From a virus, in the IMG/VR virus record IMGVR_UViG_3300029286_000030: a DNA stretch of 64,000 nt; one strand, given 5' to 3'. A model generated the notes under the pieces. The model made no database searches. It saw only the letters and a program-made list of their open reading frames with translations, and was not told where the DNA came from. Positions 29,870 to 59,522 of this stretch are shown here, piece after piece. The first letter of the stretch is position 1. Every line of letters starts with the position of its first letter. A program made the translations under genes and the position numbers.

Positions 29870-31384
29870 TCACTCTAATATCATAGTTTCAATTTGTTTA
29901 ATAATTTCAATTGGTTCTTTTTCTATTAAAACAATTAGGTCCAATAGCTTTTCGGACCATCCAGCAATACAAACAACATTCTTTTCTCCTTCTGGGAAAA
30001 CAGTTGTTCCATATCCTGCAAGATCTACCAAATATAATTTAGTATTTGGATTAATATCTTTCAAATATTGGTGCCATAATTTTTGGAAGTCGTTGTTTGG
30101 ATTAATATCTTTCAAATATTGGTGCCATAATTTTTGGAAGTCGTTGTTTGGATTTGTATACATATTATATGTTTCAGAATTCCATAATTGGCAGTCAGTG
30201 AAGATTATTAATCTATCAAGATTTAATTTTTTTGCAATCATATATTCAATAATTTTAAATCCATTTGTTGAGCATCCGACATCTATGTCAGCGACTTGTG
30301 TTGCATTTTGAATAATACTTCTTTTAGATAGTTGTGCAATTGCAAAATCGTCCCCGAATGCTCCGCATATTGATTTATCGCATATCTTATTTGAAAGAGA
30401 CATTAAAACATCTCCAACTTCTTTATAAGACATTTTACTTTTATCTGATAATGCAGTTTGCATAGACCCAGAATGATCTGTTACTAACATAGTTGTTCCA
30501 ACTAAATGTGGAATATTAGTAGCACTTAATTCAACAGCATCTTCTAAAGCATCTAATACTGTAGATGCATTTGGATTATCATTTTCTTTAATAACCTTAT
30601 ATGCTGAATAAAATCTAAATGGATACATCTTGCTTTTTCTAATAATAGCTTCATTAGAAAGTTTTGGTAAATATAATTCAGTATCTACTCCAGTTTTTAA
30701 GAAATTATTTAAGTTTCTAATTGTTGCAAATATAGGCATCTTAGGAGCTATGTGTTCCCATGTTTCTTTTGTAGACCCATTAGTAGATATATATGTTTCC
30801 CAAGTTTCTGGAATAGCCATAGTTCTTGAATTAATTCTATCAAATAACATATCTTCTTCACTATCAAGTGGAGTTGGGTGCGCAAGTCTAAGAGCATCTC
30901 TTAATTTTACTTCACCATCTTTATCATATTTTGCTAATTGATATTCATCAAATCTATGGAACGCATCTGCCAAAGATAATTTGAGTTGTTTTGGAACTGA
31001 ATTATCAAAGTTCTTTAAATGATAAGCCAACGCTTCTGTTATTTCATCTGCTCTTCTTATAATATAATTAGCATACTTTCTAACATATGGTTTTGCTTCT
31101 GTGCAATTAGCTGCTTCAACTAAAATAGCAATTGGAACAGATCTTAAATATAAATCATTTCTTAAAAATACCGCAAGTTTTAATACATATTCTGGATCTT
31201 TCTTTAAAACAGTTTTAATAAGTTCAATAGTTTCGTTTGTTGTATCTCCATAGAACTTATCTTCTTTCATAAGCTGTGCTGCGCACATTAAGTATAATTT
31301 AACTTTATCTGATGGAACATATGCTAACGCTCCTTCTTTATTAGTTGTTTTTGAAACAATTTTTACAGGTTTATTAAATCTCAT
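29870..31384 (-). CDS. Ro60-like protein: TROVE domain + C-terminal vWA (MIDAS DHSGSM)
   Basis: vWA motifs LVTDHSGSM, LIIFTDCQ; N-terminal half shows Ro60-like blocks (LYLMCAAQLM..FYGD cf. Ro60 FLCFGSEGGTYY; LRLAHPTP cf. LRLSHLKP). Confidence 0.7.
   Translation of the reverse strand: MRFNKPVKIVSKTTNKEGALAYVPSDKVKLYLMCAAQLMKEDKFYGDTTNETIELIKTVLKKDPEYVLKLAVFLRNDLYLRSVPIAILVEAANCTEAKPYVRKYANYIIRRADEITEALAYHLKNFDNSVPKQLKLSLADAFHRFDEYQLAKYDKDGEVKLRDALRLAHPTPLDSEEDMLFDRINSRTMAIPETWETYISTNGSTKETWEHIAPKMPIFATIRNLNNFLKTGVDTELYLPKLSNEAIIRKSKMYPFRFYSAYKVIKENDNPNASTVLDALEDAVELSATNIPHLVGTTMLVTDHSGSMQTALSDKSKMSYKEVGDVLMSLSNKICDKSICGAFGDDFAIAQLSKRSIIQNATQVADIDVGCSTNGFKIIEYMIAKKLNLDRLIIFTDCQLWNSETYNMYTNPNNDFQKLWHQYLKDINPNNDFQKLWHQYLKDINPNTKLYLVDLAGYGTTVFPEGEKNVVCIAGWSEKLLDLIVLIEKEPIEIIKQIETMILE
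30050..30151. repeat. Perfect 51-bp tandem duplication (2 copies) inside Ro60-like gene, in frame (duplicates NPNNDFQKLWHQYLKDI)
   Basis: 30050-30100 identical to 30101-30151. Confidence 0.9.
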
Positions 31385-31533: not shown

Positions 31534-32235
31534 CTATTTTCCAAACCGTCTATGTCTGTTTTCATAGTCAGCTATAACCGCATCAATATCTTCTTCAGTT
31601 ATATCTGGCCAATATTTATTTAAAAATGCAAATTCAGAATAAGCACTTTGAAAAGTTAAAAACCCGGACAGGCGCTGTTCTTTTGATGTTCGAACAATTA
31701 GATCCGGGCTTTTAAAATCAGCGTATAAATACTTCTGTAATTCATTTACAGTAAGCTCTCCTGGATTAACTTTTCCTTGGGCAAATTCTGCAGTATATTT
31801 TTTTACTGCATCAACTATCTCGGTTTGCCCGTCATACCCAATAGCAATAATTACTTGTTTGTTACGAAACTGTGAAGTATATTGTTCTATCTTCTCCATT
31901 CGGGTTTGAAATCCTTTTGAGAATACATCTCTACGTCCAATAAATTTTATATTTATTCCATTTTCAATAACTTCATTTCGTTTTAATACTTTATCAAGTT
32001 CTTGTTCGAAAATTTTTAATAAAATCATTAGCTCGGTTTTGGGGCGTTCTAAATTTTTCAACGAAAGAGTATAAAAAATTACTGTTGAAATGTTCGGGTA
32101 TTTAGATAACCACCCCAAAACATCCCAAGCTTTTCTAGTTCCTTCGATATAGCTTTGCGTAAAGGACACTCCGGCCGCATTCGCATATCTTCGGTTACCA
32201 TCTGGGATGAATCCGATGCTTTCTAACATATTCAC
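31534..32235 (-). CDS. uppS: Undecaprenyl/di-trans-poly-cis polyprenyl diphosphate synthase (cis-prenyltransferase)
   Basis: IPDGNRRYA near N-terminus; C-terminal DLIVRTSKEQRLSGFLTFQSAYSEFAFLNKYWPD...ENRHRRFG aligns to UppS; SD-like GGAG upstream. Confidence 0.88.
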   Translation of the reverse strand: MNMLESIGFIPDGNRRYANAAGVSFTQSYIEGTRKAWDVLGWLSKYPNISTVIFYTLSLKNLERPKTELMILLKIFEQELDKVLKRNEVIENGINIKFIGRRDVFSKGFQTRMEKIEQYTSQFRNKQVIIAIGYDGQTEIVDAVKKYTAEFAQGKVNPGELTVNELQKYLYADFKSPDLIVRTSKEQRLSGFLTFQSAYSEFAFLNKYWPDITEEDIDAVIADYENRHRRFGK

Positions 32236-33143: not shown

Positions 33144-33953
33144 TTAAAACCTTCCGCCTGCTCCTCCTCCACTAAATCCTCCCGAATTTCCAAATCCACC
33201 AAATCCCCCAGATGAGCCTCCTCCAAACGAACTTCCACCAGATGAACTTCGACCAGATGAACTTCCACCAGATGAACTTCCACCAGATGATCTGCCAGGC
33301 GGTCTTCCAAATGATCCACCAATAATTGAACCACCAATTGATCCTCCACTAGAAGAATCATCGCTTATTATTATAATAAAAACAACAGCAACAATAAAAA
33401 TACAAAATATCATTAAAAAGAATACACCCGGATCCGATAAATCAATAGTACTAATTTTATCTGGAAGAAGTTCATTTGATTGCACATTATTTAAATCAGC
33501 AATTGCTAAAGTAAGTCCTGTATAAAAATCTCCTTTCTTAAAATTTGGATCAAAATCTTTTAATTGAATATCGCGTATCTCAATATCAGTAATCATTGTT
33601 TCCGCGCCTTTTGCAGTTGCAATAAAATATTCTCTATCTTTTACTGCTATAAGAATTACTAATCCATCAAATCTTCCTTTATTTCCTACTCCAAATTTAT
33701 TACCTAATTCAAGAGCATAATCAGAAATTGGTTTACCTTCGGTTGAATCAATTAACCATACGCCTATTTCAATATTAGAATCAGTTGAAACTTGTTTAAG
33801 TTGAAAATTAAGTTGTGATATTTGTTCAGTTGTTAATGTACCAGAATAATCATTCAAATAATTCGTAGGAATTGGAATGGAATCAATGCTTAACGAATAA
33901 GCACTGACCATCATTAATAATATTCCAATTATTATACATATTTTATTCAACAT
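33144..33953 (-). CDS. TPM-domain (TLP18.3/Psb32/MOLO-1-like) protein with TM and Gly/Ser-rich C-terminal tail
   Basis: LNDYSGTLTTEQISQL...GVWLIDS...NGLVILIAVKDREYFIATAKG; 4-nt overlap with lemA. Confidence 0.8.
   Translation of the reverse strand: MLNKICIIIGILLMMVSAYSLSIDSIPIPTNYLNDYSGTLTTEQISQLNFQLKQVSTDSNIEIGVWLIDSTEGKPISDYALELGNKFGVGNKGRFDGLVILIAVKDREYFIATAKGAETMITDIEIRDIQLKDFDPNFKKGDFYTGLTLAIADLNNVQSNELLPDKISTIDLSDPGVFFLMIFCIFIVAVVFIIIISDDSSSGGSIGGSIIGGSFGRPPGRSSGGSSSGGSSSGRSSSGGSSFGGGSSGGFGGFGNSGGFSGGGAGGRF
33180..33300. repeat. 15-bp tandem coding repeat (Gly/Ser-rich tail of TPM protein)
   Basis: ccagatgaacttcca-like units repeated about 5 times. Confidence 0.8.
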
Positions 33954-34524
33954 TGAAATCTACCACTGGGCTATCTTCTGATCCTGGCTTAGATTCATAA
34001 AATTTCTTTGGACTAAATCCAAACATGCCGGCCATTACATTTCCAGGAAATGTTTTAATAGCTGCATTATATGATTGTACTGATACATTATATTCTCCTC
34101 TAGCAAAACTTATACGATTTTCTGTTCCTTCTAAAGAAACCATTAAATCTTTATATGCTTGAGTTGCAGTTAGAGTTGGATATGCTTCAACTGTTACAAG
34201 TAATCTTGATATAGCAGAATCAAGTTGATTCGCTGCATCTACTTTCTGTTCTTGTGTTCCTGCACTTGCCCACGCACTACGCGCGTTAACTACTGCAGTT
34301 AATGTTGTTTGTTCAAAATTAGCTACACCCTTTACAGTTGAAACTAAATTTGGAATTAAATCAGCTCTTCGTTGATATTGCGCTTCTACAAGAGACCACT
34401 TTTGATCTGCTTCTAATCCTTTAGTAACAAATCCATTATAAGATCCCATGAAAAATAATGCAACCATACCAACAATTACTAATAAAATTACTAATACTAT
34501 TCCTATTGTTGTTCCTGCTCCCAT
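33943..34524 (-). CDS. lemA: LemA family membrane protein
   Basis: N-terminal TM; EAQYQRRADLIPNLVSTVKG signature. Confidence 0.88.
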   Translation of the reverse strand: MGAGTTIGIVLVILLVIVGMVALFFMGSYNGFVTKGLEADQKWSLVEAQYQRRADLIPNLVSTVKGVANFEQTTLTAVVNARSAWASAGTQEQKVDAANQLDSAISRLLVTVEAYPTLTATQAYKDLMVSLEGTENRISFARGEYNVSVQSYNAAIKTFPGNVMAGMFGFSPKKFYESKPGSEDSPVVDFNVE

Positions 34525-34574: not shown

Positions 34575-36491
34575 TCATGAAAAAAATGATGCCAATGTTG
34601 ATTGCGAATCCTTTATAAAGTATGCAAGCTCGGCCCATACATTTTCAAGATTAATATCTGTTATCTTCATTTTATTCTTTTCAAACTCTTCAGCCGTACA
34701 ATATTTTTTATCTTTACCAACTCCAACTCCCCGAAGATTTGGAATTAAAAAATGTATTCCAGGCCCATACTTAGTTGAAATCTGTGCTTGAAGTTGTGAA
34801 GGCATTTTATAATCGGCAGCACTCTTTACACTAAATCTAATTTCTGCCAAAGATAAATCTTTTTTTAATAAATCATATACTGTATCTCTTAAATATGCTT
34901 CAGAGAATTTTACTCTACGCTCTTCTGTTATTTTAGGAACAAGCACTTCCCAAAACATTTTTCTACTCAAAGTGCTTAGGGATTTCTTTCTAACACCAAG
35001 ATTTTTAACTACAATTTTTCCTTCGTTGGTTCTATAAATATAATTTTTCTTAATAAACTTTTTTGGTTTATTAATATAATCATATTCATCCATCTCTGAA
35101 TCAGTTTCTTTATCTCCAACATTTCCTTTGAAAAACCACATGTCAGATATTTCAGCATCTATTGACATATCAAATTTATCATATGGAAATGGAACTGCAT
35201 CTTTTATTTCTTTTATTATATCCTGTTTAAGCTGTAACATCTTTTCTTTATTATCATATATATCAATTAGATATACAGAATCGGTATCAGTATATATTAC
35301 ATTATAGCCAGCATCTGCAAATCTCTTTCTAGCTAACTTTACCCATTGTCTTCCTAATCTAGTTACATCTGCAGCAGAAGTTCTATTATAAAGATGTGAG
35401 AATGATGGATTACCAAGTAACCCATATGCGGCATTCAATTGTATTTTTAATGAATATTCGCGTGGATCCTTTTCTTTCTTATATTGTAATCTCCATTCAT
35501 ACCATTTCTTAAATAACTGTTCAACTTTACCTTGAACTTTATTATTATAAACACCTTCAACATTAAACTTACCATTGCCATTCCAACCTTCTACAGATGG
35601 AGAAAATATATTACACTGATGCATTATACTTGGATATAGTGATGCAAAATCAAGACAGTATATTTTTCCAGAAAAATATTCACCTGCTGGAAAACTTACA
35701 TATCCACCACCATAAGACTGTTTATCTTTTACATTAGAATATTCTTCTTTTAAATCTAAAGATTTACAAATACTTTTATATGTGAATACAGCTGTTGAAC
35801 ATGATAAATATTTCTTTGAAGACACATCTTCTGGAATAACATATTCTTTAAAACTTGAAAAATAATCCTCAATCCATACATATAATTTTTTTGTAACTTC
35901 TAAATCTCTTAATGTGTAATCCTTTATCTTATTTGTTTCATCAATTGTCCATTGGTCGGTCTCTTTTTTTAATATATTATAATCAAAGTCTTCTATTTTA
36001 GCTGTGTCATCACTAACAATTCCAATTGTTCTTGATATAAAATCAAGAGAATGCCGTAATAGTAAATCATTAAGCATTCCTTTCTTTACTTTCATTGCAC
36101 TAGCACGTTTTTTTATAATCATCATAAGATCAATATTAATTTTTCCTTTAATACGAAATGTTGCATTTTGATCTTTTTTTACAATATCATCATATCCATT
36201 ATAATAAAGAACTTGATTATCATATCCTTCAAAAAATGTTTTCTGATGGAATCCACCAAGATTATTAAATCCAACTAAAAAATAATGTCTATTTATCATA
36301 TCTCTAATTTCTTTTTCATGATATAATAAGTAATACTTATCATCATCAAATGAATAACATCCAAACACTCTTAATTTGTGTGTTTGAGTTGGAGATCTAT
36401 ATTCTGCAGCAGTTTCAAGATCGTATATTAATACACCTTTAAATCTGTCTTCAACTTTAGGTTTTATAACTTCATCAGCCATTGAATGCAC
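34575..36491 (-). CDS. polB: Family B DNA polymerase, compact (638 aa) with 3'-5' exonuclease motifs
   Basis: Exo I YDLET; motif A DFASLYPSIM; motif B KIQLNAAYG; motif C YTDTDSVYL. Confidence 0.9.
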   Translation of the reverse strand: MHSMADEVIKPKVEDRFKGVLIYDLETAAEYRSPTQTHKLRVFGCYSFDDDKYYLLYHEKEIRDMINRHYFLVGFNNLGGFHQKTFFEGYDNQVLYYNGYDDIVKKDQNATFRIKGKINIDLMMIIKKRASAMKVKKGMLNDLLLRHSLDFISRTIGIVSDDTAKIEDFDYNILKKETDQWTIDETNKIKDYTLRDLEVTKKLYVWIEDYFSSFKEYVIPEDVSSKKYLSCSTAVFTYKSICKSLDLKEEYSNVKDKQSYGGGYVSFPAGEYFSGKIYCLDFASLYPSIMHQCNIFSPSVEGWNGNGKFNVEGVYNNKVQGKVEQLFKKWYEWRLQYKKEKDPREYSLKIQLNAAYGLLGNPSFSHLYNRTSAADVTRLGRQWVKLARKRFADAGYNVIYTDTDSVYLIDIYDNKEKMLQLKQDIIKEIKDAVPFPYDKFDMSIDAEISDMWFFKGNVGDKETDSEMDEYDYINKPKKFIKKNYIYRTNEGKIVVKNLGVRKKSLSTLSRKMFWEVLVPKITEERRVKFSEAYLRDTVYDLLKKDLSLAEIRFSVKSAADYKMPSQLQAQISTKYGPGIHFLIPNLRGVGVGKDKKYCTAEEFEKNKMKITDINLENVWAELAYFIKDSQSTLASFFS

Positions 36492-40480: not shown

Positions 40481-41254
40481 CTAATCAATAGAATATATTA
40501 TAGTCACAGTGGCATCTACTGAAACATCGCCTGGAGTTATTTGTGTTGGTGGTGTATATGAAGTTGTAACTGATCCAGCTGCACTATCCATTGCTTTCAT
40601 CATAGGATAATAATTATAAGAATTTTCTGATATATTCATAACTTTTCCTAAAGTAACACCTAACCCTTTGGCCATTGATACTGCTTTAAGTTTTGCACTA
40701 GCTGAAGCTTCTTCAAGGGCTTGTGCTTTTATTTCATTTTGTTTTGAGTCAGTAAGAGTAAATGAAACACTTTGAACTCTATTTGCTCCTGCACGAACAG
40801 CAGCATCTATTACACTTCCAGATTTAGTTATATCTGTTAAAGTGATTTGTAAAGAATTAACTGTTATATATCCATTTTTATCTTGTCTATTATAAGAAGA
40901 ATTCCAAACATATTGTTCATTTTCATAATATGAAAGGGTTTTAATATCTTTAATTCCTATATCATCCAATGCATTTCGTACATTATCTGAAATACGCGCA
41001 TTATCTTCTTGGCTTGCTTGTGCTGATTCATTCCATGTTTCGATATTCAATATAATTTCTACTTTATCTGGCATAACTTTTTTGGATACAGTTCCAGAAG
41101 TACTTAATGTTTTTTGCGTTGGATTAATATCAGGAGTATTATTATCGAAAATCATTCCCATTGAAAATGCTGCCGTTATTAAAATAGCTGCAGTAAAAAT
41201 TGCAATAAGAATCAACATATTATAAGGCGGTGCCTGTGGTTTATCATTAGTCAT
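40481..41254 (-). CDS. SIMPL/DUF541 family secreted protein; start at second Met (MTNDKPQ)
   Basis: N-terminal TM/signal; SIMPL-like pattern; TTTATAAA at 41278-41285 is 24 nt upstream of 41254. Confidence 0.7.
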   Translation of the reverse strand: MTNDKPQAPPYNMLILIAIFTAAILITAAFSMGMIFDNNTPDINPTQKTLSTSGTVSKKVMPDKVEIILNIETWNESAQASQEDNARISDNVRNALDDIGIKDIKTLSYYENEQYVWNSSYNRQDKNGYITVNSLQITLTDITKSGSVIDAAVRAGANRVQSVSFTLTDSKQNEIKAQALEEASASAKLKAVSMAKGLGVTLGKVMNISENSYNYYPMMKAMDSAAGSVTTSYTPPTQITPGDVSVDATVTIIYSID

Positions 41255-41412
41255 ATATATCTTTACCCTCAATCTCTTTATAAATTTATCTTTTTTACGC
41301 GGCTACGGCCATACTAAGTGGAATCCAATTAAATATAAAACCATTAATAATATAACTATTCCAATCATCACTGCAACAAGTGCATTTGTATTGTCTTTTT
41401 CTTCCATAAAAA

Positions 41413-41844
41413 TCACTTTAATATATCCTCTAAATTTTTCCAGAAAAATCTTACTTTATTAACATCTTGCCCTTTTAAATATGTTGGAGATAAAGTACAT
41501 TTGCCCATATTATTGAACATTTCAGCAAAATCCTCTTCCTCATTTGTTTTGGCGTAATCGCTTATATATATATTTGAATCTAAAAATATCTGTTTATATT
41601 CATCTCGTTGTGATTGACTTAATTTATTAAAATAAATATAATGCCCTGATTCATGCCCAGCAGCATTCAATACATTTGCTACAGGATAATCTTTAGGACT
41701 AATATACATTAAGTTAATCTCTCTACTATATCCACCACTTGTTAAAAAATATGCTCGTAATAAAAGAAAGAAAAATAAAGCTAATATGATGAATAATAGC
41801 AATTTTTTTCCAGTTCCTATTTTTTCGTCAGAAATATTTATCAA
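41413..41844 (-). CDS. Membrane-anchored small protein with HExxH motif (AGHESGHYIYF), putative minimal zinc metallopeptidase
   Basis: N-terminal TM; HESGH plus downstream EEEDFAEMF; overlaps MTAP gene end (operon). Confidence 0.45.
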   Translation of the reverse strand: MINISDEKIGTGKKLLLFIILALFFFLLLRAYFLTSGGYSREINLMYISPKDYPVANVLNAAGHESGHYIYFNKLSQSQRDEYKQIFLDSNIYISDYAKTNEEEDFAEMFNNMGKCTLSPTYLKGQDVNKVRFFWKNLEDILK

Positions 41845-42508
41845 CTTCCGGTAAAATTTTATCTAATAATGTAACTATTTTATTTACATTTAATGCCATT
41901 GTTTTTTTTACTTCATCGTGTGATACTTCGCGGCCTTCTTTCCAACTATCATAATCAGTTACCATATTAATAACACAATAAGGCATTCCCAATTCTTTAG
42001 CTAAAAAACATTCTGGGCAAGTGGTCATATTTATTATATCTGCTCCAAATGATTTAAACATTCTACTTTCTGCTCTTGTTGAAAATCGTGGGCCTTCAAT
42101 TGTAATAAGTGATTTACATGGTTTTACATATTTAAGTATTATTTTTCTAAGTTTTTTATCAAAAATTTCCCCCATACTTACATGCCTATTTGTGTGTGTT
42201 ATATTTCGTATAGTCCAATCAATAACACTATCAGGGCATACTAACATTCCGGGTTTAATTTTTTCATTTAAACTTCCACAAGCAGATAATGAAATAATTG
42301 CTTTGCACTTATGTAAACTCATTAAATAATTATTTTCTTTATATGAAACACTTGATGGCATTAACTGATGTTCTACCCCATGTCTAGAAATAAATAAAAC
42401 ATCAACGCCATTAATTTTTGTAATACAGTATGCACTTTGTCCAATAATTTGAGTGTATTTTCCTTTAACATATTTTTCTAATCCAGTTCCACCAATTATA
42501 GCAATCAT
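41828..42508 (-). CDS. 5'-methylthioadenosine/purine nucleoside phosphorylase (MTAP family)
   Basis: IIGGTGL; [12 protein letters not shown]; [13 protein letters not shown]; [31 protein letters not shown]; VTDYDSWKE all align to MTAP. Confidence 0.9.
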
Positions 42509-43017
42509 ACTTTCAACCCCGAAATAACTTTATATTTTTTAAGTTTTTTAGAACCTTTTAATGCAACAATTTCTAAAACAAATAAGCATCCAACTACTTT
42601 AGCTCCAGATCGTTTAACTAATTTACAAACAGCTTCTGCAGTTCCACCAGTTGCTAGAACATCGTCTACAATTAAAACTCGTTTTCCTTTAATATCTTCT
42701 GGATTTATTTCTATTTCAGCTTCACCATATTCCAATAAATATTTTTGTGAAATTGTCTTTCTTGGGAGTTTTCCCTTCTTTCTAGCTGGAACAAACCCAA
42801 CATATCTATCCATTGCTAAGACAGAACCAAATATAAATCCTCTGCTTTCTATACCAACAATAATATCAAATTTAAGTGGTGCAATTTTATCTAGAAGTAA
42901 ATGAATGCTTTGATTAAATAATTTATTATCCCTAAGTATTGTAGTTACATCCCTAAACATTATTCCTTTTTTAGGAAAATCCTTTATTATTTTTGTTTTT
43001 TCTAATGGATTATTCAT
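42505..43017 (-). CDS. apt: Adenine phosphoribosyltransferase
   Basis: PRPP-binding [16 protein letters not shown]; APRT length and layout. Confidence 0.88.
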
Positions 43018-43793
43018 TTTAACACGTCCTTTTCTTTAACTGCATAACATCCCATATGGCTTACAGATATTGCTCCAGCCTTATTAGCTAATTTAATAGA
43101 ATCAATTAATGGATACCCTTTATTCAAGAAATGTACTAAAGTAGCAATAACTGTATCTCCCGCACCAGTCACATCTACACACTTTGTAGGAATTGCTGGG
43201 AATCGTATAATCTTTTCATGCGCGCTTAATACCATTCCTTTAGATCCTCGTGTAATCAATGTATTTTCAAACCAGTCATCAGTTAAACCTAATTTGGTCA
43301 TTTCAATAAATTCTTTTTCGTTTGGTTTTATTAAATAACATCCTTTAAACCATTTAAAATGATTAGGTTTACAATCTACAATAACTTTTGATCCGGTTGA
43401 CATTATAGTTTTAGCTACTTTACGAGTTATTGCTCCTTTATTATAATCACTTACTAAAATATAATCATATTTTTCAGCTAAAATATCGTCAATTAAATTC
43501 TGTTCTTTTTCCTTTATTCTATCTCGAGAGTATTTTGGTGTTTCATCATCAAATCTAAATATATATTTTCCTCTATCAGAGATTCTTATTTTAGTACTTC
43601 GTTCTCCTGAATAGAAAAAATCTACTTCAGATCCAAGTGTTTCTAGATTTTCTTTAACGTTTCCAGCACCGCCAATTTTCATTTCAGTAGTTAGTGCTGT
43701 ATAACAAGGAATATTTCCTTCTGGATTAGATCGTGGTTTACAATTATAATAAACATCTAATATAAAATCGCCAACTACACATATCTTATTCAT
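43014..43793 (-). CDS. hldA: pfkB-family sugar kinase, D-glycero-beta-D-manno-heptose-7-phosphate kinase (HldE domain I / HldA-like)
   Basis: [40 protein letters not shown] align to HldE kinase domain. Confidence 0.8.
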
Positions 43794-44602
43794 TTTTTCA
43801 TCTCCTTTAAAGCGTCTTTTAAACTATAAAAATTATCTGTATACCCAGCTGCTTTCAGTGGACCAAGATCTGCTTTAGTCCCAACTTGTAATTTTCCTTT
43901 TAATTCATACGGCATATCAATCATATTTGGAACTGCACCTATCTCTTTAAATAAGTCATTATATGTTATATTTGTTCCAGTGCCAACATCATATATTCCT
44001 TGTATATAATGCAATCTAAAATGATCGATTATTTTAACTACATCTTTAACATAAATATAATCCCTTGCAGATTGTTCTGTTCCTCTAAAAAGCTTAGTAT
44101 TTCCATCAAGTATTTTAGTTACAAAACTTCGCATTTCTCCTTTATGTGATTCATTGGGTCCATATACATTAAAAAATCTTAATCCAACTGCACGATTTGC
44201 AATAGTATTATCAACTAAAAGTTTTGATGCGGCATAATAATTAAGTGGGTATCCATCATTTCCATAAACAGATGCACTACTCGCATATATGAATGGTATA
44301 TAATGTTTAAGAGCATTTAAAAATAATGATATTGTATATTTATAATTATTATCATAACATAATTCACTATTAGCAGTTGTATCAGAAGTGGCTCCTAAAT
44401 GTATTATAGCATCAATTCCTGTTAAATCAGTTGATCCATCCAAATCATTTTTATCTAAATAACTTGTATATTTTAATCCTTCAAGATTCTTAAAATTATC
44501 TAATTTAGTATCTACAATTAGAATATCTGTTATCCCAATAGAATTTAAATATCTAATATAATTAGATCCAATAAATCCAGCTCCACCAGTCACCATTATC
44601 AT
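43790..44602 (-). CDS. hldD: ADP-L-glycero-D-manno-heptose 6-epimerase
   Basis: MIMVTGGAGFIGSN, GITDILIVD, DNNYKYT, IPFIYASSASVYG, RFFNVYGPNESHKG, KLKGKLQVGTKADLGPLKAAGY align along full length to HldD. Confidence 0.9.
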   Translation of the reverse strand: MIMVTGGAGFIGSNYIRYLNSIGITDILIVDTKLDNFKNLEGLKYTSYLDKNDLDGSTDLTGIDAIIHLGATSDTTANSELCYDNNYKYTISLFLNALKHYIPFIYASSASVYGNDGYPLNYYAASKLLVDNTIANRAVGLRFFNVYGPNESHKGEMRSFVTKILDGNTKLFRGTEQSARDYIYVKDVVKIIDHFRLHYIQGIYDVGTGTNITYNDLFKEIGAVPNMIDMPYELKGKLQVGTKADLGPLKAAGYTDNFYSLKDALKEMKK

Positions 44603-44748
44603 TTATACTCAACTCCTTTAAATTTTACCATTTCAACTACTTCTCTTCCACAATGTTTACATCTATATACTTCATGTTCTGTTCCATTTTTTTGTATATC
44701 GCAAACATACTGTATTTCCCCATTGCACTCTTTGCAATATATTACCAT
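44599..44748 (-). CDS. Zn-ribbon mini-protein (49 aa)
   Basis: CKEC...CDIQ...CKHCG; fills gap between cupin and hldD; below the ORF-track cutoff. Confidence 0.3.
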   Translation of the reverse strand: MVIYCKECNGEIQYVCDIQKNGTEHEVYRCKHCGREVVEMVKFKGVEYK

Positions 44749-45087
44749 TTAATCTCCCTTTATAATTCTATAACTATCTGATTCAAAATGTTGCGTAGAT
44801 ATTTCTATTATATCAGAATCACATAACGCTTCTACTGAATGGCACATTCCAGGAGTTATATGAAAACTATCTCCTTCTCCAAGCACATGCTTTTTAATAA
44901 TATCAACACCTTCAATAATATAAAGATTAATAGTTCCTTTTAGAACATAAAATGTTTCATCCTTGATTTTATGATAGTGAAGACTACATTTTTTTCCTTT
45001 ATTAAAATGAAGTATTTTACCACAGTAGAGCTCATTATTAACTAACCAATTTTCGTATCCCCAGCCTTTTTTATGTATATCAGTCAT
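44749..45087 (-). CDS. Cupin-2 metal-binding protein (possible cupin-type sugar-phosphate isomerase)
   Basis: Cupin motif 1 HYHKIKDETFYVLKG and motif 2 GDSFHITPGMCHSVEA. Confidence 0.75.
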   Translation of the reverse strand: MTDIHKKGWGYENWLVNNELYCGKILHFNKGKKCSLHYHKIKDETFYVLKGTINLYIIEGVDIIKKHVLGEGDSFHITPGMCHSVEALCDSDIIEISTQHFESDSYRIIKGD

Positions 45088-46436: not shown

Positions 46437-46520
46437 TGCAGGGGAACGGATTCGGACCGTTGAAAGCACTAAGCTACAGGATCTTAAGTCCTGCCCCTTT
46501 GACCGCTCGGGAACCCCTGC
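46437..46520 (-). tRNA. tRNA-Leu (anticodon UAA), class II with long variable arm
   Basis: Minus-strand fold: acceptor GCAGGGG/CCCCUGC, 3-bp D-stem with GG in loop, anticodon stem CAGGA/UCCUG with loop CUUAAGA (U33, anticodon UAA, G37), 15-nt variable arm, T-stem AACGG/CCGUU, discriminator A; T-loop reads UCCGAAU (C at position 55, noncanonical); no encoded CCA. Confidence 0.55.
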
Positions 46521-49625: not shown

Positions 49626-50798
49626 TCATCCTTTCACCACCGCTAATGGACTCAATTTTGTTTTTATTTTTACCAAATCTTTTTGATTTTCCATAACAAC
49701 ATCAATATCTTTATAACTTCCCGGAGCTTCGTCTAAATTTTCTATATTCCGTACGGAATGTAATATCCCCAAATCATTTAATTTTTTCTGCTCATCTGCG
49801 AGATTTAAAGTTCTCTGTGCGACTTTTCTACCCATTTTTCTACCTGCACCATGAGAACAAGATTTAAATGACCACATATTTCCGAGCCCCTCGACAATAT
49901 AACTTGAAGTTCCCTGCGACCCAGGAATTAATCCAATTTCTCCTAATTGAGCTGATGTGGCACCTTTTCTATGAACCCAAACATCTTTGCCAAAATGTTT
50001 TTCGTTTACTGCATAATTATGGTTAATATCATATTCCCATGTTATATTTGCACCTAAATGTCTATTAAAACTTTCTTTAATAAAATCCATCATAAATGTT
50101 CTATTATTTTTAGCAAACTCCATACAATAATTCATTTCTGAAATATAATTTGATCCTTCTTGAGAATCTATTGGTAATGATGCTAAATCCCATTCTGCAG
50201 GTATATTTGAATACCATGTTTTATTTAATTCTTTTGCAAGATTATTATAATATTCGCATACTTTAAACCCCAAATTTCTTGAACCGGAGTGTATCATTGC
50301 ATAAATAAATCCATCATCCCCTTTTTGAATTTCACAAAAATGATTACCAGAACCTAAACTTCCAACTTGATGTGTTGCTGATTTATATTCGCTTTCCACA
50401 ATTCCGCCTGGCAATATAGGTGATTTTGGCATTCTATCTTCATTGGATTCTTCTCTGTGTTTAAATCCAACTGGAACATCTTTACGGATATCCGTAAGGA
50501 TTTTAACAATATCAGTTTTATTAATTTCTTTAAGATCTGTTTTTATTGAATGCATCCCACACGATACGTCCGAACCTACTGCATGAGGAATTATCATATT
50601 TGTTGTTGCAAAAACTCCACCTATAGGAATTCCAAATCCGCTATGCGCGTCAGGCATTAATGCAACATGAGAAAAAATAAATGGTAAATTGGCAGCATTT
50701 TTTGCTTGCTGTAATGCTTCGTTTTCCAAATCAGTAGCCCATACTTTAATTGGAACTCTTTCAGTAGTAATATTAATCATAATCCACACGCATCCCAA
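49626..50798 (-). CDS. rtcB: RtcB-family RNA ligase (short, 390 aa)
   Basis: ALMPDAHSGFGIPIGGV, GSDVSCGMH, SGSRNLG, CSHGAGRKMGRK motifs. Confidence 0.82.
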   Translation of the reverse strand: MGCVWIMINITTERVPIKVWATDLENEALQQAKNAANLPFIFSHVALMPDAHSGFGIPIGGVFATTNMIIPHAVGSDVSCGMHSIKTDLKEINKTDIVKILTDIRKDVPVGFKHREESNEDRMPKSPILPGGIVESEYKSATHQVGSLGSGNHFCEIQKGDDGFIYAMIHSGSRNLGFKVCEYYNNLAKELNKTWYSNIPAEWDLASLPIDSQEGSNYISEMNYCMEFAKNNRTFMMDFIKESFNRHLGANITWEYDINHNYAVNEKHFGKDVWVHRKGATSAQLGEIGLIPGSQGTSSYIVEGLGNMWSFKSCSHGAGRKMGRKVAQRTLNLADEQKKLNDLGILHSVRNIENLDEAPGSYKDIDVVMENQKDLVKIKTKLSPLAVVKG

Positions 50799-51547
50799 TT
50801 AATTAATGTATCTAAACGTTTAAAAAGGTTTGTTTTATCCTTTTTATATTCGTGTTGCCAAACTATTATTGTTTCTAAATTATGCTCTGCTTTTATTTTA
50901 GCTATTCGCATTTCATCATTATACCATATCATTGAGACTTCTTTTCCATTAATCTGCTCATCGTGCTTATATTTTTCTGGATTTGCGTGCCAATAATCTC
51001 CATAAAATTCTATAATCAAATTTAAATTCTCTATAAAAATATCGGGTCTTGCCCAGCTTCTATCAGAAAATCGTAATGCGGGGTGCTGTACAGCAGTTGG
51101 GCATATATTTTGTAATTCTCTAAAAAAATTATCTTCTAATTTACTATGATTAGAAGAATACTTCCCTTTTACTATTGCCCCATTTCTCCAAGATTCTTTC
51201 ATTTTATCGCTTCGTAATATTCTCTGTTTATTATCAGTAAATTGTTTTAATGCACTCGCTCGTTGAAATTGTTTAAATTCATTTGAACGTGTTAATCCAG
51301 TAGACTTTGTAATTACTTTATTTCTATATTCTGGAATCTTCCATAACGATTTAGATATCTTAGACAATTTTATTTTAGTCGCATTAATACTTTCTTTAGA
51401 ATGATGTTTTCCATAAAATGGATTGTTCTTTCCAGTTCTATCTCTACATTTATTACAATACCCGAATTTACAATTACGTGATATTGGTTTTTCACACGTT
51501 ATACATGTTTTCATAAAGTATTCACTATTTCTTTTAAATATCTCCAT
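50777..51547 (-). CDS. Freestanding homing-endonuclease-like protein: Zn-ribbon + NUMOD3-like motif (GKNNPFYGKHHSKES) + C-terminal restriction-endonuclease-like domain (IIEFYGDYWHANPEKY)
   Basis: Motif matches to phage homing-endonuclease modules; overlaps rtcB start by 22 nt; start trimmed to Met43 (alternative Met54 at 51514). Confidence 0.55.
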   Translation of the reverse strand: MEIFKRNSEYFMKTCITCEKPISRNCKFGYCNKCRDRTGKNNPFYGKHHSKESINATKIKLSKISKSLWKIPEYRNKVITKSTGLTRSNEFKQFQRASALKQFTDNKQRILRSDKMKESWRNGAIVKGKYSSNHSKLEDNFFRELQNICPTAVQHPALRFSDRSWARPDIFIENLNLIIEFYGDYWHANPEKYKHDEQINGKEVSMIWYNDEMRIAKIKAEHNLETIIVWQHEYKKDKTNLFKRLDTLINWDACGL

Positions 51548-51842
51548 AATCCCACGCATATGGTTTATGATTTTTATAAAAATGTTTAAATCCTTCTTCA
51601 CTATCTGCGTATACTTCTGTTTCAAAATCTCCCCATACTTTACCATATTTTGGGTGTTCTGCTTTAAAATCATTTATCCATTCGAAATAATCCTCGTGTA
51701 CTTCTGCAGTTATAATCCAACCATCTTTATGTATTTTTGTATATTCTTTTCCATCTAAATTATATGGTTCGACCTCGCTAGCATTAAGAGTTAGTGCGCC
51801 ATTCTCAGATTTAAAATCTACCCCAAATTTTTTTGTAATCAT
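51534..51842 (-). CDS. Hypothetical protein (102 aa)
   Basis: ORF. Confidence 0.45.
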   Translation of the reverse strand: MITKKFGVDFKSENGALTLNASEVEPYNLDGKEYTKIHKDGWIITAEVHEDYFEWINDFKAEHPKYGKVWGDFETEVYADSEEGFKHFYKNHKPYAWDYGDI

Positions 51843-52041
51843 TTCATCACCAATATCTTTGATTTTTTACTTTACATACTGGGCAAGTAAAACTTATATC
51901 AATCCCAGTTTGTTCTGTTCCAATTTTTTTATAATCTTTTAAATAATCTCTATCTAATACCGCGCCGCAATGTTCACAACTTACTAAATCATATATATCT
52001 GTCATACATTATTCATAATCCGAAACCTTTTTAAATAGGCA

Positions 52042-52446
52042 TTATTTGATGATTAATATATTTGGGGGCCGTCTACGCTTTTTGCGTAAATTAATAACAA
52101 TATCTTTTCCATCAACAAATACCATTATCATCATCATCATTAAAATAAGCATTACTTCAAGAACCAGCATTACATTATAACCTATAACTTCATTAATAGA
52201 ATGCGCCAATGTTTGAGATTCTGTCATTTGACAATTACTATCCCAATGAGTTGACATAAATGCGGTTTGTTCTCCATTTAATAATTCATTAATAGAATTA
52301 CCATCCAAAAAATCCCAATTAATGGTTCCTTCACATCCATAATATTTACCAATTTGTTTGTGTGTTACTTCATGAACTTGAGACATTAAAAATATAATCA
52401 TTAATGAAAATAAAAATATAAAAAGTAATTGTTTAATTATGCCCAT
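52042..52446 (-). CDS. Membrane protein (134 aa) with HEVTH motif after first TM
   Basis: Two TM segments; HExxH may be a chance match. Confidence 0.45.
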   Translation of the reverse strand: MGIIKQLLFIFLFSLMIIFLMSQVHEVTHKQIGKYYGCEGTINWDFLDGNSINELLNGEQTAFMSTHWDSNCQMTESQTLAHSINEVIGYNVMLVLEVMLILMMMMIMVFVDGKDIVINLRKKRRRPPNILIIK

Positions 52447-52467
52447 ATTTATCTACTCTTCTAAATA

Positions 52468-54249
52468 TTATGTAAAATTTTTTATACAGAAATCGTATAT
52501 TATGTCATTATTCATGTCATCTTCGGTTCCAAATAATCCCCACAATAATTTCTTTTTATAATAATTAACACAATCTGGTATTTTCCATAATGCCCAATTT
52601 TGTGAATATAATGTATTAATTTGTAATTGTGCATTATAATCGTCTGTAGCATTATATATATTCCCGTCTGACATTGAATATATTATGTAATTGGTATCTT
52701 TTATTGAAACATATTTTAACAAATTTGAATCATACGCATAACTATTACCCCTCATATTAAAATCGGAAATAATATTCGGAGTATTTGGTTCAATATAACA
52801 ATATCCAGAATTATGAAATTCATATGGACCAGTACATCCAATCCCAACGGTGGCATGATTAATATTTGGCATATCAATATATGCTGTTTTATATCCCATA
52901 TTTTTTAATAAATTAATTAATAACATTGATTTTTCTCCACATACTCCAATCCCATTGTATAATACTTGGTAAGGATATAAATATCCTGTACTTTCACGAA
53001 TATCATCGCCGTTAAAATAATCTATTTGTTGCACCATATTTACAATAGATCTAACTTTATTTTCATTCGAAATTGGTAATAAATTAAAATAATTTGATAT
53101 TATTAATAATTGTGTTTGAGAAACTGATTCATTAATACGAGTAATTATCTTATTTTTATCTCTATCACATCCATTACAATCTTGTAATATATTTAAATAA
53201 TCATTGATTTCTCCATACATTGTTGTTGAATATGTTTCTTTAATGCCTTGATTATAATAATAAAAATTCTTATTAAACGAACTATAAATATTCATATCAT
53301 TGCCATATAATCTATACAATACAGAAGCATTTAAATATCTATTATTAATATCATCTCTTTGAGCAACAGCATTTAAATATTTTGTTTGAAATATTGTTAA
53401 TTCCGCGGTTTTTGTATTATATAATGTTAATAAGTTATTAAAATTTGTTTTAACCTCTAAATTTTCTGCATTTATTTGCATTAGTTGTACACCCATTATA
53501 TTTAATGAATTTTGAAGATTCGTTTTTTCAGTAGTTAATAAATTAATTTCTGATTGTAATTCATTTAATTCAGCTATATTTAAATCATTGGCAACTAATA
53601 AATTATTATATTCTAATTGTAAAGTATTTAAATTAATGGTTTTTTCTATTAATCGAGAATTTAAATCATTTATTATAAGTTGTAAATTGTTTTTTTGAGT
53701 AGTTAATAAATTAATTTGTATATTTAGATCATTTAACCTGGTTTGATAATTTTGATCTTTCTGTAACCCAATAAACTCTAGGTTATTTTTATCTAATTGT
53801 AACTGTCGATAATTACTTTGTAATATATTTAAATCATATGTTTTTATTAAAATTTGCGAATTTAAATCATTTAATCTAGTCTGATAATTTTGATCTTTTT
53901 GTAATCCAAGAAAATCTGATAAATTTTTATCATAGTTTAATTGATTATAATCTGTTATCATTTTATTTAATTCGATTTCTTTACGGGCAATTTGTAAATT
54001 TAATGCAGTTATATTATTTTGAAGTGTTGTAACTGTTTGATCTTTAGTTACCCCAAGTAAAATAAGTTGACTTTTTTCTAAAACAACTTGATTATAATCT
54101 ATTTGCAATTTATTTAGATCTGTAGATAATTGTATAGATAATGTATTTAAGTCATTAATTTTGTCTTGTAATATAGCTGTTTTATTGGTGCACCCAAATA
54201 GCAATAGAAACATTAGGATGATACTTACACCAAGTAGTATCTTATTCAT
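52468..54249 (-). CDS. Lipoprotein: N-terminal coiled-coil region + C-terminal transglutaminase-like Cys-protease fold
   Basis: Lipobox LLFGC; heptad-like L..LN.LQ repeats; GVCGEKSMLLINLLKNMGYKTAYIDMP..NHATVGI (Cys...His core). Confidence 0.6.
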   Translation of the reverse strand: MNKILLGVSIILMFLLLFGCTNKTAILQDKINDLNTLSIQLSTDLNKLQIDYNQVVLEKSQLILLGVTKDQTVTTLQNNITALNLQIARKEIELNKMITDYNQLNYDKNLSDFLGLQKDQNYQTRLNDLNSQILIKTYDLNILQSNYRQLQLDKNNLEFIGLQKDQNYQTRLNDLNIQINLLTTQKNNLQLIINDLNSRLIEKTINLNTLQLEYNNLLVANDLNIAELNELQSEINLLTTEKTNLQNSLNIMGVQLMQINAENLEVKTNFNNLLTLYNTKTAELTIFQTKYLNAVAQRDDINNRYLNASVLYRLYGNDMNIYSSFNKNFYYYNQGIKETYSTTMYGEINDYLNILQDCNGCDRDKNKIITRINESVSQTQLLIISNYFNLLPISNENKVRSIVNMVQQIDYFNGDDIRESTGYLYPYQVLYNGIGVCGEKSMLLINLLKNMGYKTAYIDMPNINHATVGIGCTGPYEFHNSGYCYIEPNTPNIISDFNMRGNSYAYDSNLLKYVSIKDTNYIIYSMSDGNIYNATDDYNAQLQINTLYSQNWALWKIPDCVNYYKKKLLWGLFGTEDDMNNDIIYDFCIKNFT

Positions 54250-54286
54250 TTATATAATATATACCCAAAAGGTTTTTAAATGTATC

Positions 54287-54481
54287 TTACCAGGTATAAA
54301 TTACATACCATTTTTTGTATCCATCATCATAGGTCATATTGGCCCATATATTTCTAGTCTTTAAAAGATTCAAATATTTTTCAGCATCTCTTTTGCGCTC
54401 AAATCCTTTAATTACTAAACGGGGTTCTTTTTTTATCAGTTTCCCCATATTAATCAATATTGTGTGGCTATCCATAATCAA
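54287..54481 (-). CDS. Small protein (64 aa)
   Basis: ORF. Confidence 0.35.
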   Translation of the reverse strand: MIMDSHTILINMGKLIKKEPRLVIKGFERKRDAEKYLNLLKTRNIWANMTYDDGYKKWYVIYTW

Positions 54482-54720
54482 TCCAATCTTTTAAATGTTT
54501 TTGAATATGCATTTTCCATTTTAGCATGTGCCTTCTTTATTTTTTTACTATTTTTTGTTGCTTTCATTTAGTACACCGCCTTTCCCATTTTACCTTCGTA
54601 TACTTTTAATTTTTTACTAATTTTTTTTGCTCTTGCTTTACCTTTAACCATATTTTCACCTCATAACTCATAATTACTTATAATATATCATACTATTCTA
54701 GTATTTATAAATCTTTCTAA

Positions 54721-54957
54721 TCACATCATTATTTCTGTTAATTCTTTTGCTTTTTTCATTCTAAACGCAGTTAGTTCTGCATTTATATTATATCGTTCTT
54801 CATCTATACCGCCTTGTCTTGCAAACCAGTCAAGCATACTACCCATTCGTAATGGATCGTCTTTTTTTAGTTCAGATTTCATGCGGTTTACTTGGGGTTG
54901 TTCTTTATCATCCTCAATTCCTTCCAATATAAATATATCTAATGCGTTTTCACTCAT
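54721..54957 (-). CDS. Small acidic protein with shared N-terminal leader motif (MSENALDIFILEG); ATG start (ORF-track GTG at 54966)
   Basis: N-terminal similarity to leaders of 56740, 58012 and 58821 genes. Confidence 0.45.
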   Translation of the reverse strand: MSENALDIFILEGIEDDKEQPQVNRMKSELKKDDPLRMGSMLDWFARQGGIDEERYNINAELTAFRMKKAKELTEIMM

Positions 54958-54962
54958 AAATA

Positions 54963-55232
54963 TCACATATTTTTATTTAACTCATCTATTCCATCTTTTA
55001 GTGTTTTTAATTTTTTCATTTCTGATATTTGTTCTGCTTTTAATTCGGCTCTTTTCTCTAACACACTATTATAATTAGGTGCTTTTTCTGAAAACGATGT
55101 ATCTTTACCAGGTTTCCAATTTTTCTTAATCCATTCTTCTTGCATTTCTTTTTCTTCGTTTTCGTTATGTTCAAGACTTTCTAATTGGTATTGTCTTAAT
55201 TGTTTATTTTTTGATAACGCCATAAATATCAT
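54963..55232 (-). CDS. Small charged coiled-coil protein (89 aa)
   Basis: ORF. Confidence 0.4.
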   Translation of the reverse strand: MIFMALSKNKQLRQYQLESLEHNENEEKEMQEEWIKKNWKPGKDTSFSEKAPNYNSVLEKRAELKAEQISEMKKLKTLKDGIDELNKNM

Positions 55233-55531
55233 CTTCTTTTATTGGTTCTATCGTTCTTAGTAAATGCGGGTTCATCAATCAAATCACCCATTTTTTCAAC
55301 TTGATCTTCATATAATTGTGCAACCATATGATCTTTTGTAACAGCACTATCTGCTTCATCTCCTTCATATTTATGAAAATCATTATGAGCATTTAATAAT
55401 TTAAATCTCTCTAATTCTGATGATGCTTGGTATGGGAAAATCGCAAAATCTCCACACTCTAAACATTTAGAAGAACCATCGGTTCCATGTGCAAATAAAC
55501 TTGTTTCTCTTTTAGCAACTATTGTACCCAT
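55229..55531 (-). CDS. Small protein (100 aa)
   Basis: ORF. Confidence 0.4.
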   Translation of the reverse strand: MGTIVAKRETSLFAHGTDGSSKCLECGDFAIFPYQASSELERFKLLNAHNDFHKYEGDEADSAVTKDHMVAQLYEDQVEKMGDLIDEPAFTKNDRTNKRR

Positions 55532-55712
55532 AAAATCACCTAATAATAATTTGGAACTCCATCTAATTTTGTTTGTTGAATTGATTGAACATCTTCAACT
55601 ATTTGATCAAATTCTTTTTTCTTTTTAATTTGTTCAGTTATTTTATCCAAACTGCGCTGCATTTTAATTGCATTTTCCATATACAATCATATATATCGGA
55701 GATATATAAAGC

Positions 55713-56597: not shown

Positions 56598-56739
56598 TCC
56601 TTACAATCGCACGCACACCACCATGGAAATGGACCGCACTTACGTTCTTTTTCTTTTGGTAATTCAGTAATTGCCTGTGCGCAGGAATCACATATTAAAC
56701 TCATTTTTGGTGCAATCTTTCCGCAATACATACATCTAT

Positions 56740-57495: not shown

Positions 57496-57794
57496 AATTC
57501 GCTCATCGCCGTATTTACTGCAGCTCCCAAATCTTGCTGCTCCTGATTATATTCATTTTGTTTTTTCTTACGAACTAATTCTGAATCAATATATCCGAGT
57601 GCAGTTCCTGCAACTAATCCTGGAACACCAAACGGAACATATGCTGCAGCAAAAAGGGTTTCTCTTGTAATTAAATCTTTTACATTTTGTTTATCTAATC
57701 TAATCCTATCCTCTTCATTCATGTCTGCTAAATTAGAAGCCCAAGGTTGGATTAATTTTTTTGGTTTTCCAGTATATTCAAATTGATTTTCCAT
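57492..57794 (-). CDS. Small protein (100 aa) with C-terminal hydrophobic/Gly segment
   Basis: ORF, 4-nt overlap. Confidence 0.45.
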   Translation of the reverse strand: MENQFEYTGKPKKLIQPWASNLADMNEEDRIRLDKQNVKDLITRETLFAAAYVPFGVPGLVAGTALGYIDSELVRKKKQNEYNQEQQDLGAAVNTAMSEL

Positions 57795-57817
57795 AATATA
57801 TTTAAGGAATTGCTTAC

Positions 57818-58815: not shown

Positions 58816-58820
58816 AAAAA

Positions 58821-59453: not shown

Positions 59454-59475
59454 ATAATTAAATAGATATTTCTTA

Positions 59476-59492: not shown

Positions 59493-59522
59493 ATATTATA
59501 CCCTAATAATAATTCAATGTTT

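Follow-up and report, generated by a model that had tools for sequence, protein, structure and literature searches.

The 64,000-nt stretch of viral DNA filed in IMG/VR as IMGVR_UViG_3300029286_000030 (referred to here as the window) carries, between positions 41,413 and 45,087, a run of minus-strand genes (Table 1) that probably represents two independent auxiliary modules lying side by side in one long transcription unit of a probable DPANN-archaeal virus. The first module, consisting of a small metal-binding cupin, a zinc-ribbon protein, an HldD-type epimerase, and an HldA-type kinase, would be a host-derived partial ADP-heptose pathway, in which the cupin would convert sedoheptulose-7-phosphate (S7P) to D-glycero-D-manno-heptose-7-phosphate, standing in for the SIS-type isomerase GmhA; the kinase, as judged from its family, would phosphorylate at O-1; the 7-phosphatase and the adenylyltransferase HldC would come from the host, in which HldC is part of the corresponding cluster; and the epimerase would convert ADP-D,D-heptose to ADP-L,D-heptose. 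Its likely purpose would be the provision of extra heptose donor for glycosylating the host envelope or virion proteins, which are the putative targets. The second module, adenine phosphoribosyltransferase (APRT) and 5'-methylthioadenosine phosphorylase (MTAP), would be a captured cellular adenine-salvage pair, in which MTAP would cleave 5'-methylthioadenosine (MTA), and possibly 5'-deoxyadenosine or adenosine, to adenine and pentose-1-phosphate, and APRT would convert adenine to AMP. Together with the S-adenosylhomocysteine (SAH) hydrolase, NrdD, and MazG of the virus, the pair might feed and clean the pool of adenylate and S-adenosylmethionine (SAM) by-products during replication. The novelty would lie in a cupin-type isomerase, an apparently undescribed variation on a known pathway, and in the occurrence of this variant among DPANN archaea and the viruses that infect them; it would not lie in the adjacency of heptose and adenine genes.

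Proteins were assigned to families with Pfam, the NCBIfam/TIGR models with their curated cutoffs, PHROG, and sequence matches to the PDB. The epimerase scored 230.3 bits with TIGR02197 (heptose_epim; equivalog cutoff 274.6) and 53.5 bits with galE, and its best PDB match, E. coli HldD (1EQ2, 163 bits), spans the full length of the protein (residues 1–266). The alignment with HldD includes the GxxGxxG motif (GGAGFIGS), the catalytic Ser (ASSA), the YxxxK motif (YxxSK), and the lysine of HKG, which is the second catalytic Lys. The kinase, about 50 residues shorter than the model, scored 180.6 bits with TIGR02198 (rfaE_dom_I; cutoff 345), the next family being ribokinase at 66.4 bits; its sole PDB match is HldA of Burkholderia (4E84), and it also matches phrog_8133. 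An earlier note, made from the window alone, had named the two proteins as HldD and as a stand-alone kinase of the HldE domain I type, and the profile searches bear this out: the heptose models outscore galE (230 vs. 53) and ribokinase (181 vs. 66), so that neither protein groups with GalE or the ribokinases and both are taken as heptose-type. By family, they are clear homologues of HldD and HldA, which predicts their functions. Furthermore, HldC adjoins the kinase in two relatives, a DPANN-like contig (L101) and a virus (L103), and is present in 48 of 80 viral cupin loci. An MtnK-type reading of the kinase was rejected, as this family was not among the Pfam/NCBIfam matches returned.

The cupin is predicted, with considerable confidence, to be the isomerase of the heptose pathway that converts S7P to heptose-7-phosphate. 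It matches Cupin_2 (E 2e-11) and phrog_7851 (E 2e-43), and its scores with the isomerase families lie just under the Pfam gathering thresholds (MannoseP_isomer, 22.6 vs. 23.6; Lyx_isomer, 17.6 vs. 20.8). The full metal-binding motifs claimed for it in the earlier note are present, with H37, H39, E44, and H83 of the HxH...E...H site invariant in an alignment of 23 sequences. A search of the PDB with the cupin profile retrieved the D-lyxose/D-mannose isomerases 2Y0O and 7NZO (E ~5e-5), with which the cupin has an N-terminal VN..YC.K motif in common, as well as L-ribose isomerase, mannose-6-phosphate isomerase, and the cupin domain of Cap5F; WbuC-family cupins, which belong to polysaccharide clusters, were also among the profile matches. 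The cupin-type aldose-ketose isomerases (2Y0O, 7NZO, L-ribose isomerase, and the cupin domain of type-II phosphomannose isomerase) thus resemble the viral protein in fold, in both motifs, and in the manno-type stereochemistry of the presumed reaction; however, the matches are weak (E ~1e-4 to 1e-5), and the viral protein differs in its much smaller size and in the phosphorylated heptulose that it would presumably take as substrate. AlphaFold, run on the cupin sequence alone, gave a poor model (pLDDT 42).

Comparative indications come from the company that the cupin keeps. The family is large (1,444 clusters at 50% identity, E <= 1e-10) and occurs on at least 585 viral contigs, from which 80 loci were fetched and screened for partners. 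In these 80 loci, the cupin is accompanied by a HAD phosphatase in 58, HldC in 48, a PfkB kinase in 47, and an epimerase in 45, and an alternative GDP-type set appears as a GHMP kinase in 14 and an NTP-transferase in 11. GmhA was detected in none of the 80 by tblastn with the E. coli protein; in a control set of 80 ordinary bacterial HldE loci (~30% identity, gathered in a genome-contig scan with the kinase alignment, and reflecting a generic motif of no use for host assignment), GmhA was present in 21 and the cupin in none. Moreover, the family includes natural fusions of the types HldC+cupin, PfkB+cupin, cupin+PfkB, and PfkB+HldC+cupin. Judged by its family, the cupin is an analogue of GmhA and neither its homologue nor a member of the SIS family. 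The suggestion in the earlier note that it might replace GmhA hence gains strong comparative support from loci that do without GmhA, from fusions to HldE domains, from the metal site, and from the isomerase profile matches. Full-text literature searches returned no description of a cupin-type S7P isomerase or of a cyanophage heptose cluster with a cupin.

The alternative that survives best, which we nevertheless regard as unlikely, is that the cupin is a tailoring enzyme, i.e., a partner for epimerization or dehydration of nucleotide-heptoses similar to RmlC or Cap5F, or a regulator, and that heptose-7-phosphate is supplied by GmhA of the host. The matches to the Cap5F cupin domain and to WbuC-family cupins, the isomerase scores under the cutoffs, and the poor structural model are compatible with such a role. 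However, the four metal ligands are invariant, and RmlC-type epimerases are not known to have such a metal site. Isomerization of S7P is the sole step common to the ADP-β and GDP-α heptose routes, and the cupin is found in both ADP-type and GDP-type sets; some viral cupin clusters are devoid of any SDR (short-chain dehydrogenase/reductase) partner. The contrast between 0 of 80 viral and 21 of 80 bacterial loci with GmhA, the direct fusion to HldE domains, and the VN..YC.K motif as in D-lyxose/mannose isomerases also speak for the isomerase.

Some observations on the annotation of these proteins may be recorded here. Existing annotations of the cyanophage cupin read 'cysteine dioxygenase' or 'putative nucleotidyltransferase'; the former, a RefSeq label, was dismissed as an artefact of the phrog_7851 annotation. 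A reading as an ARD-type protein of methionine salvage was likewise rejected, this family not being among the Pfam/NCBIfam matches returned. RefSeq labels in the cyanophages P-SSM2 (L001; 5722–6066 and 6047–6403) and Bellamy (L003; 2449–2757 and 4992–5342) look swapped or wrong, and the cyanophage 'phosphoheptose isomerase' of 102–114 aa is a phosphatase of the HAD type, in which a DxDGT motif is present and which matches HAD_PNKP and a capsule-biosynthesis phosphatase family. The fusion proteins P0452, P0444, P0458, P0472, P0379, P0396, and P0423 join the cupin to PfkB kinase and/or HldC-like domains, and one kinase-adenylyltransferase-cupin fusion of 587 aa is in effect an HldE that brings its own candidate isomerase.

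The genes of both modules are packed tightly. ATGA is found at the junctions at 45087, 44602, 43793, 43017, and 42508, and a GGAG-like motif precedes each of them by a few bases. The earlier note had described a translationally coupled operon of four genes, of which the coordinates and the ATGA overlaps are exact; however, 4-nt overlaps are a genome-wide habit, occurring at 18 of the 72 minus-strand junctions in the window, and the packing runs on upstream via unrelated small open reading frames (ORFs) to the tRNA-Leu gene. The heptose/salvage genes accordingly belong to a longer co-directional unit and do not form a four-gene operon by themselves. Co-transcription, as predicted from co-direction and overlapping stop and start codons, is very likely, and in this genome it tells little about common function. 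At the downstream end, the HExxH mini-protein is 85–92% identical over residues 6–143 in sibling viruses that lack APRT and MTAP, which supports the long form with a TTG start. By this conservation, the protein is part of the viral backbone and not tied to the heptose or salvage genes.

The adenine-salvage identities proposed in the earlier note were upheld, with the curated APRT cutoffs exceeded and the active-site residues of MTAP kept. APRT scored 210.3 bits with NF002636 (cutoff 125) and 197.5 bits with TIGR01090 (cutoff 185.85), no rival model came near these scores, all 17 of its 17 PDB matches are APRTs, and the PRPP-binding loop is conserved. The MTAP-like protein scored 199.3 bits with TIGR01694, below the cutoff of 274.85, and less than 90 bits with rival families of purine nucleoside phosphorylases; its best PDB match is human MTAP (1CB0, 159 bits). 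The shortfall in score is attributed to two loop deletions common to the viral forms. The R-H, S/T-A, F, M, and D-x-D residues are conserved relative to 1CB0 and across 13 homologues; from human MTAP, we take R-H and T/S-A to form the phosphate site, M the ribose site, F the 5'-pocket, and D-x-D to specify adenine.

The boundary between the two modules is revealed by a sibling virus (L104/L105) that is syntenic with the window (primase, 95% identity; SIMPL, 83–87%; HExxH protein, 85–92%; epimerase, 81%; kinase, 79%). The sibling has the cupin, the zinc-ribbon protein (80% identical in L104, in the equivalent position), the epimerase, and the kinase, and lacks APRT and MTAP. In blastn comparison with L104, the window is 80% identical up to the stop codon of the kinase and 87% identical again from the stop codon of MTAP; between these breakpoints, L104 has 0.6 kb of unrelated DNA with ORFs of 99 and 55 aa, and the window has 1.18 kb. 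As DNA homology ends at the kinase stop and restarts at the MTAP stop, a cassette swap is indicated. In a virus of more remote kinship (L103), the kinase is immediately followed by HldC. Conversely, two viruses (L009 and L013) have the APRT-MTAP pair without heptose genes, their copies being 56–58% (APRT) and 47–55% (MTAP) identical to those of the window. Among the 80 nearest metagenomic MTAP loci, which serve as a cellular baseline, APRT is found no more than 6 kb away from MTAP in 28, usually at less than 100 nt, and MtnA lies near MTAP in 25; a heptose kinase and the cupin are nearby in none. An alignment-based scan of IMG/VR found MTAP in only four loci, and single-protein scans of viral contigs with MTAP and APRT returned no relatives. 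Nothing relevant on viral MTAP or APRT as auxiliary genes was found in literature searches, and the DPANN/groundwater virome papers that were consulted made no mention of heptose, MTAP, or APRT. Taken together, the sibling breakpoints, the travel of the pair in L009 and L013, and the pairing in 28 of 80 cellular loci indicate that APRT-MTAP is a commonplace salvage pair of cells that viruses have taken up as a separate, swappable cassette, and its adjacency to the heptose module would reflect cassette insertion and not shared chemistry.

The earlier note had instead regarded heptose-nucleotide synthesis and adenine recycling as one functional unit. In such a coupling, MTAP, with APRT as the adenine sink that pulls the reversible phosphorolysis, would give 5-methylthio- or 5-deoxy-ribose-1-phosphate, or shift the adenine and ADP-heptose pools, and would form one pathway with the kinase, the epimerase, and the cupin that leads to a novel sugar nucleotide. 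All of the genes are co-directional and coupled in translation, HldC and the phosphatase are missing where APRT-MTAP sit, and other viruses have MTAP-like genes between SDR and nucleotidyltransferase genes or beside glycosyltransferases (GTs). Nevertheless, we consider the coupling improbable: the sibling retains the heptose block with clean boundaries where the pair is lacking; HldC is present in related viruses and in the putative host; the gene set is not kept together, as APRT and MTAP each occur in none of the 80 viral cupin-heptose loci and the heptose kinase and cupin in none of the 80 MTAP loci; the pair is common in cells, where it is unlinked to heptose genes; and no known chemistry joins adenine or pentose-1-phosphate to the substrates of HldA and HldD. 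The claim of a single unit was consequently abandoned in favor of two independent modules.

The origin of the heptose module and the nature of the host can be approached through a cellular contig (L101), which has the closest non-viral relative of the kinase (70% identity) and shares its sample of origin with the viral contig L004. Its cluster has the order epimerase-HldC-cupin-kinase, with a cupin 64% identical to the viral copy and an HldC at 9246–9668 of L101 that scores 156 bits with rfaE_dom_II; Tat, CorA, LeuA-like, and carbamoyl-phosphate synthase genes are also present. The host lineage was inferred via homologues of the aspartate carbamoyltransferase of L101, which is 87% identical to a protein of 'Candidatus ainarchaeum sp.' and ~70% identical to those of Nanoarchaeota and Woesearchaeota. 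The GC content of L101 (29.5%) is close to that of the window (29.7%). On the strength of this cluster, the identities, and the GC content, the heptose module looks host-derived, a DPANN host is plausible, and HldC could be supplied by the host. The archaeal-type element recognized in the earlier note is, accordingly with these matches, described as an archaeal-type virus with a probable Iainarchaeota/Diapherotrites-like DPANN host. A further contig (L267) is 100% identical to the window over 51876–64000 and extends 8.7 kb beyond it. The virus, at least ~73 kb in length, would be linked by this locus to a host of the Iainarchaeota-like type. Viruses of CPR and DPANN organisms have been reported to carry auxiliary genes for nucleotide scavenging and nucleotide sugars (PMC12647753); those considered here carry, besides NrdD and MazG, genes for the salvage of adenine and SAM by-products (MTAP, APRT, and SAH hydrolase).

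Several points weigh against the two-module reading. Profile searches confirmed that the window lacks a GmhB-type phosphatase and an adenylyltransferase, as the earlier note had stated, and extended this to the 8.7 kb beyond its right edge, where, as in the window, HldC, HAD phosphatase, GHMP kinase, and NTP-transferase were all absent, even when searched for with profiles made from the viral sequences of 48 HldC and 58 HAD proteins; no SIS family member (GmhA) was among the Pfam/NCBIfam matches of the window ORFs scanned. Without HldC and a GmhB-like phosphatase, the viral module alone would be unable to make ADP-heptose, and supply by the host is assumed. In addition, those window ORFs that were scanned against Pfam included no heptosyltransferase. 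The epimerase, the kinase, and MTAP all score under their curated equivalog cutoffs, so their substrate specificity could differ. The assignment of the host is tentative, being based on the similarity of genes, the GC content, and joint occurrence in a single sample. Finally, viral MTAP-like genes recur in sugar-nucleotide/glycosyltransferase operons (L010 and L097) or beside GTs (L009 and L013), which hints at some link to sugars beyond plain salvage.

Of these operons, that of L010 (1536–5382) contains a small radical-SAM gene, a 4,6-dehydratase-like SDR, MTAP, a sugar-1-phosphate nucleotidyltransferase, and a GT4, with flanking glycosyltransferases, and that of L097 (5656–9708) contains an RmlD-like SDR, a cytidylyltransferase-like gene, a bona fide MtnA, MTAP, and a dehydratase-like SDR. 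MTAP in such settings could clear 5'-deoxyadenosine or MTA for SAM-using tailoring enzymes, or its pentose-1-phosphate could be used in glycans. A comparable arrangement is the methylthioxylose cluster of Mycobacterium tuberculosis, in which MTAP accompanies a GalE-like epimerase and glycosyltransferases; like the viral loci L010, L097, and L009, it places MTAP beside an SDR epimerase and glycosylation genes. By analogy, viral MTAP, with APRT as the sink, might make 5-methylthio- or 5-deoxy-pentose-1-phosphate from SAM by-products and feed it to nucleotide-sugar enzymes for unusual glycans on DPANN hosts or virions; in the window, it would enter the cupin, kinase, and epimerase, e.g., via a 7-deoxy-heptulose, for which no 7-phosphatase would be needed. 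The window differs from the mycobacterial cluster, however, in that MTAP is not linked to any nucleotidyl- or polyprenyl-phosphate transferase, and the cluster serves as a lead for this scheme only, to which we assign a probability even slightly lower than that of the coupling discussed above.

That the kinase and the epimerase act on a different, non-heptose substrate is the least credible proposal, for which one might cite that both proteins are shortened and under cutoff (181 vs. 345 and 230 vs. 274.6 bits) and that the window yielded neither a heptosyltransferase nor GmhB, but against which it counts that both proteins match the heptose families far better than any others in HMM (hidden Markov model) and PDB searches, that the linkage with rfaE_dom_II-type adenylyltransferases is consistent in relatives, and that fusions with an architecture identical to that of HldE exist.

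With two independent modules as the preferred interpretation, the locus can be set beside known systems. [quoted passage not shown] The window differs from the bacterial pathway in that SIS-type GmhA is absent and a 112-aa metal cupin occupies its slot, in that GmhB and HldC are absent, in that the proteins are 40–50 residues shorter, and in its setting, which is an archaeal virus and DPANN archaea and not Gram-negative lipopolysaccharide. The same module is present in T4-like cyanophages (P-SSM2, S-CAM1, and Bellamy), with identities in tblastn of 50–57% for the cupin, ~30% for the kinase, and ~33% for the epimerase; the cluster of P-SSM2 comprises HldC, the kinase, a 114-aa HAD protein, the cupin, and the epimerase. 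HldC and a small HAD phosphatase, which the window lacks, are further components in the cyanophages, none of which has APRT or MTAP. Heptose/lipopolysaccharide genes of cyanophages have been listed as host-acquired (PMC7378029). As for the second module, the same two adjacent enzymes, with conserved catalytic residues, make up the cellular MTAP-APRT pair, from which the viral version differs by the two loop deletions in MTAP (226 aa vs. ~248), its score under the equivalog cutoff, and its rarity in viral collections. The cupin is very probably the missing S7P isomerase of heptose pathways in marine cyanophages, DPANN archaea, and the viruses of the latter. If it has isomerase activity, the annotation of these clusters would be corrected, a non-orthologous replacement of GmhA would be added, and some DPANN archaea and viruses would be makers of ADP-heptose.

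Table 1. Features of the heptose/salvage locus, of the remainder of the window, and of the contig that extends it; functions are predictions from family matches.
Feature	Position	Strand	Remarks
Small metal-binding cupin, 112 aa	44749-45087	-	Candidate sedoheptulose-7-P isomerase, putative functional analogue of GmhA
CxxC...CxxC zinc-ribbon protein, 49 aa	44599-44748	-	ORF; weak matches to zinc-binding families; kept in heptose block
HldD-type ADP-glycero-manno-heptose 6-epimerase (SDR), short form, 270 aa	43790-44602	-	TIGR02197, 1EQ2
HldA/HldE-domain-I-type heptose-7-phosphate kinase (PfkB), short form, 259 aa	43014-43793	-	TIGR02198, 4E84
APRT, 170 aa, cassette gene 1	42505-43017	-	NF002636, TIGR01090
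MTAP-type adenine-specific nucleoside phosphorylase, shortened viral form, 226 aa, cassette gene 2	41828-42508	-	TIGR01694, 1CB0
Membrane-anchored HExxH mini-protein, 143 aa	41413-41844	-	Weak Peptidase_Mx matches around HESGH
Window-specific insertion/replacement, 1.18 kb	41831-43010	-	Exactly APRT + MTAP; blastn vs. sibling virus L104
Kelch-type beta-propeller repeat protein, 1,027 aa	203-3286	-	Possibly receptor-binding or surface protein
Giant ORF, 2,362 aa	3335-10423		No Pfam match
Giant ORF, 2,501 aa	11895-19400	-	Residues 2102-2226 make up a NUDIX hydrolase domain (E 4e-18)
GT4 polyprenyl-phosphate sugar-1-phosphate transferase	22330-23313	-	E 1e-32
ERCC4 nuclease	24588-25295		
Ro60/TROVE-vWA protein	29870-31384	-	
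UppS-type cis-prenyltransferase	31534-32235	-	E 4e-56
Membrane-associated host-like cluster: LemA + TPM-domain pair, SPFH/Band-7, SIMPL/DUF541	33943-34524, 33144-33953, 27921-28745, 40481-41272	-	
Family-B DNA polymerase	34575-36491		
Primase-like protein, 943 aa	36475-39306		
tRNA-Leu(UAA)	46437-46520	-	
RtcB ligase	49626-50798	-	
NUMOD3/I-TevI-zinc-finger endonuclease-like ORF	50777-51673	-	Overlaps RtcB
SAH hydrolase (AdoHcyase)	16183-17427 of L267		Beyond right edge of window
NrdD with ATP-cone	17438-20437 of L267		Beyond right edge of window
MazG	20434-20766 of L267		Beyond right edge of window

Outside the locus, the UppS-type and GT4 enzymes suggest virus-driven synthesis of a lipid-linked glycan carrier. 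The Ro60/TROVE protein, RtcB, the endonuclease-like ORF, and tRNA-Leu make up an RNA-repair or RNA-quality-control set. Mosaicism is apparent between the window and its sibling, in which the primase-like proteins are 95% identical but the adjoining family-B polymerases only ~50% (window 34575–36491 vs. L104 8516–10456), which suggests replacement of the polymerase gene. Within 60000–64000, the coding strand and the GC skew flip, plus-strand genes occupying ~60.3–63.2 kb and nearly all others being on the minus strand, a switch that could correspond to a module boundary or an origin. NrdD has a homologue in L268 that gives a faint intein signal.

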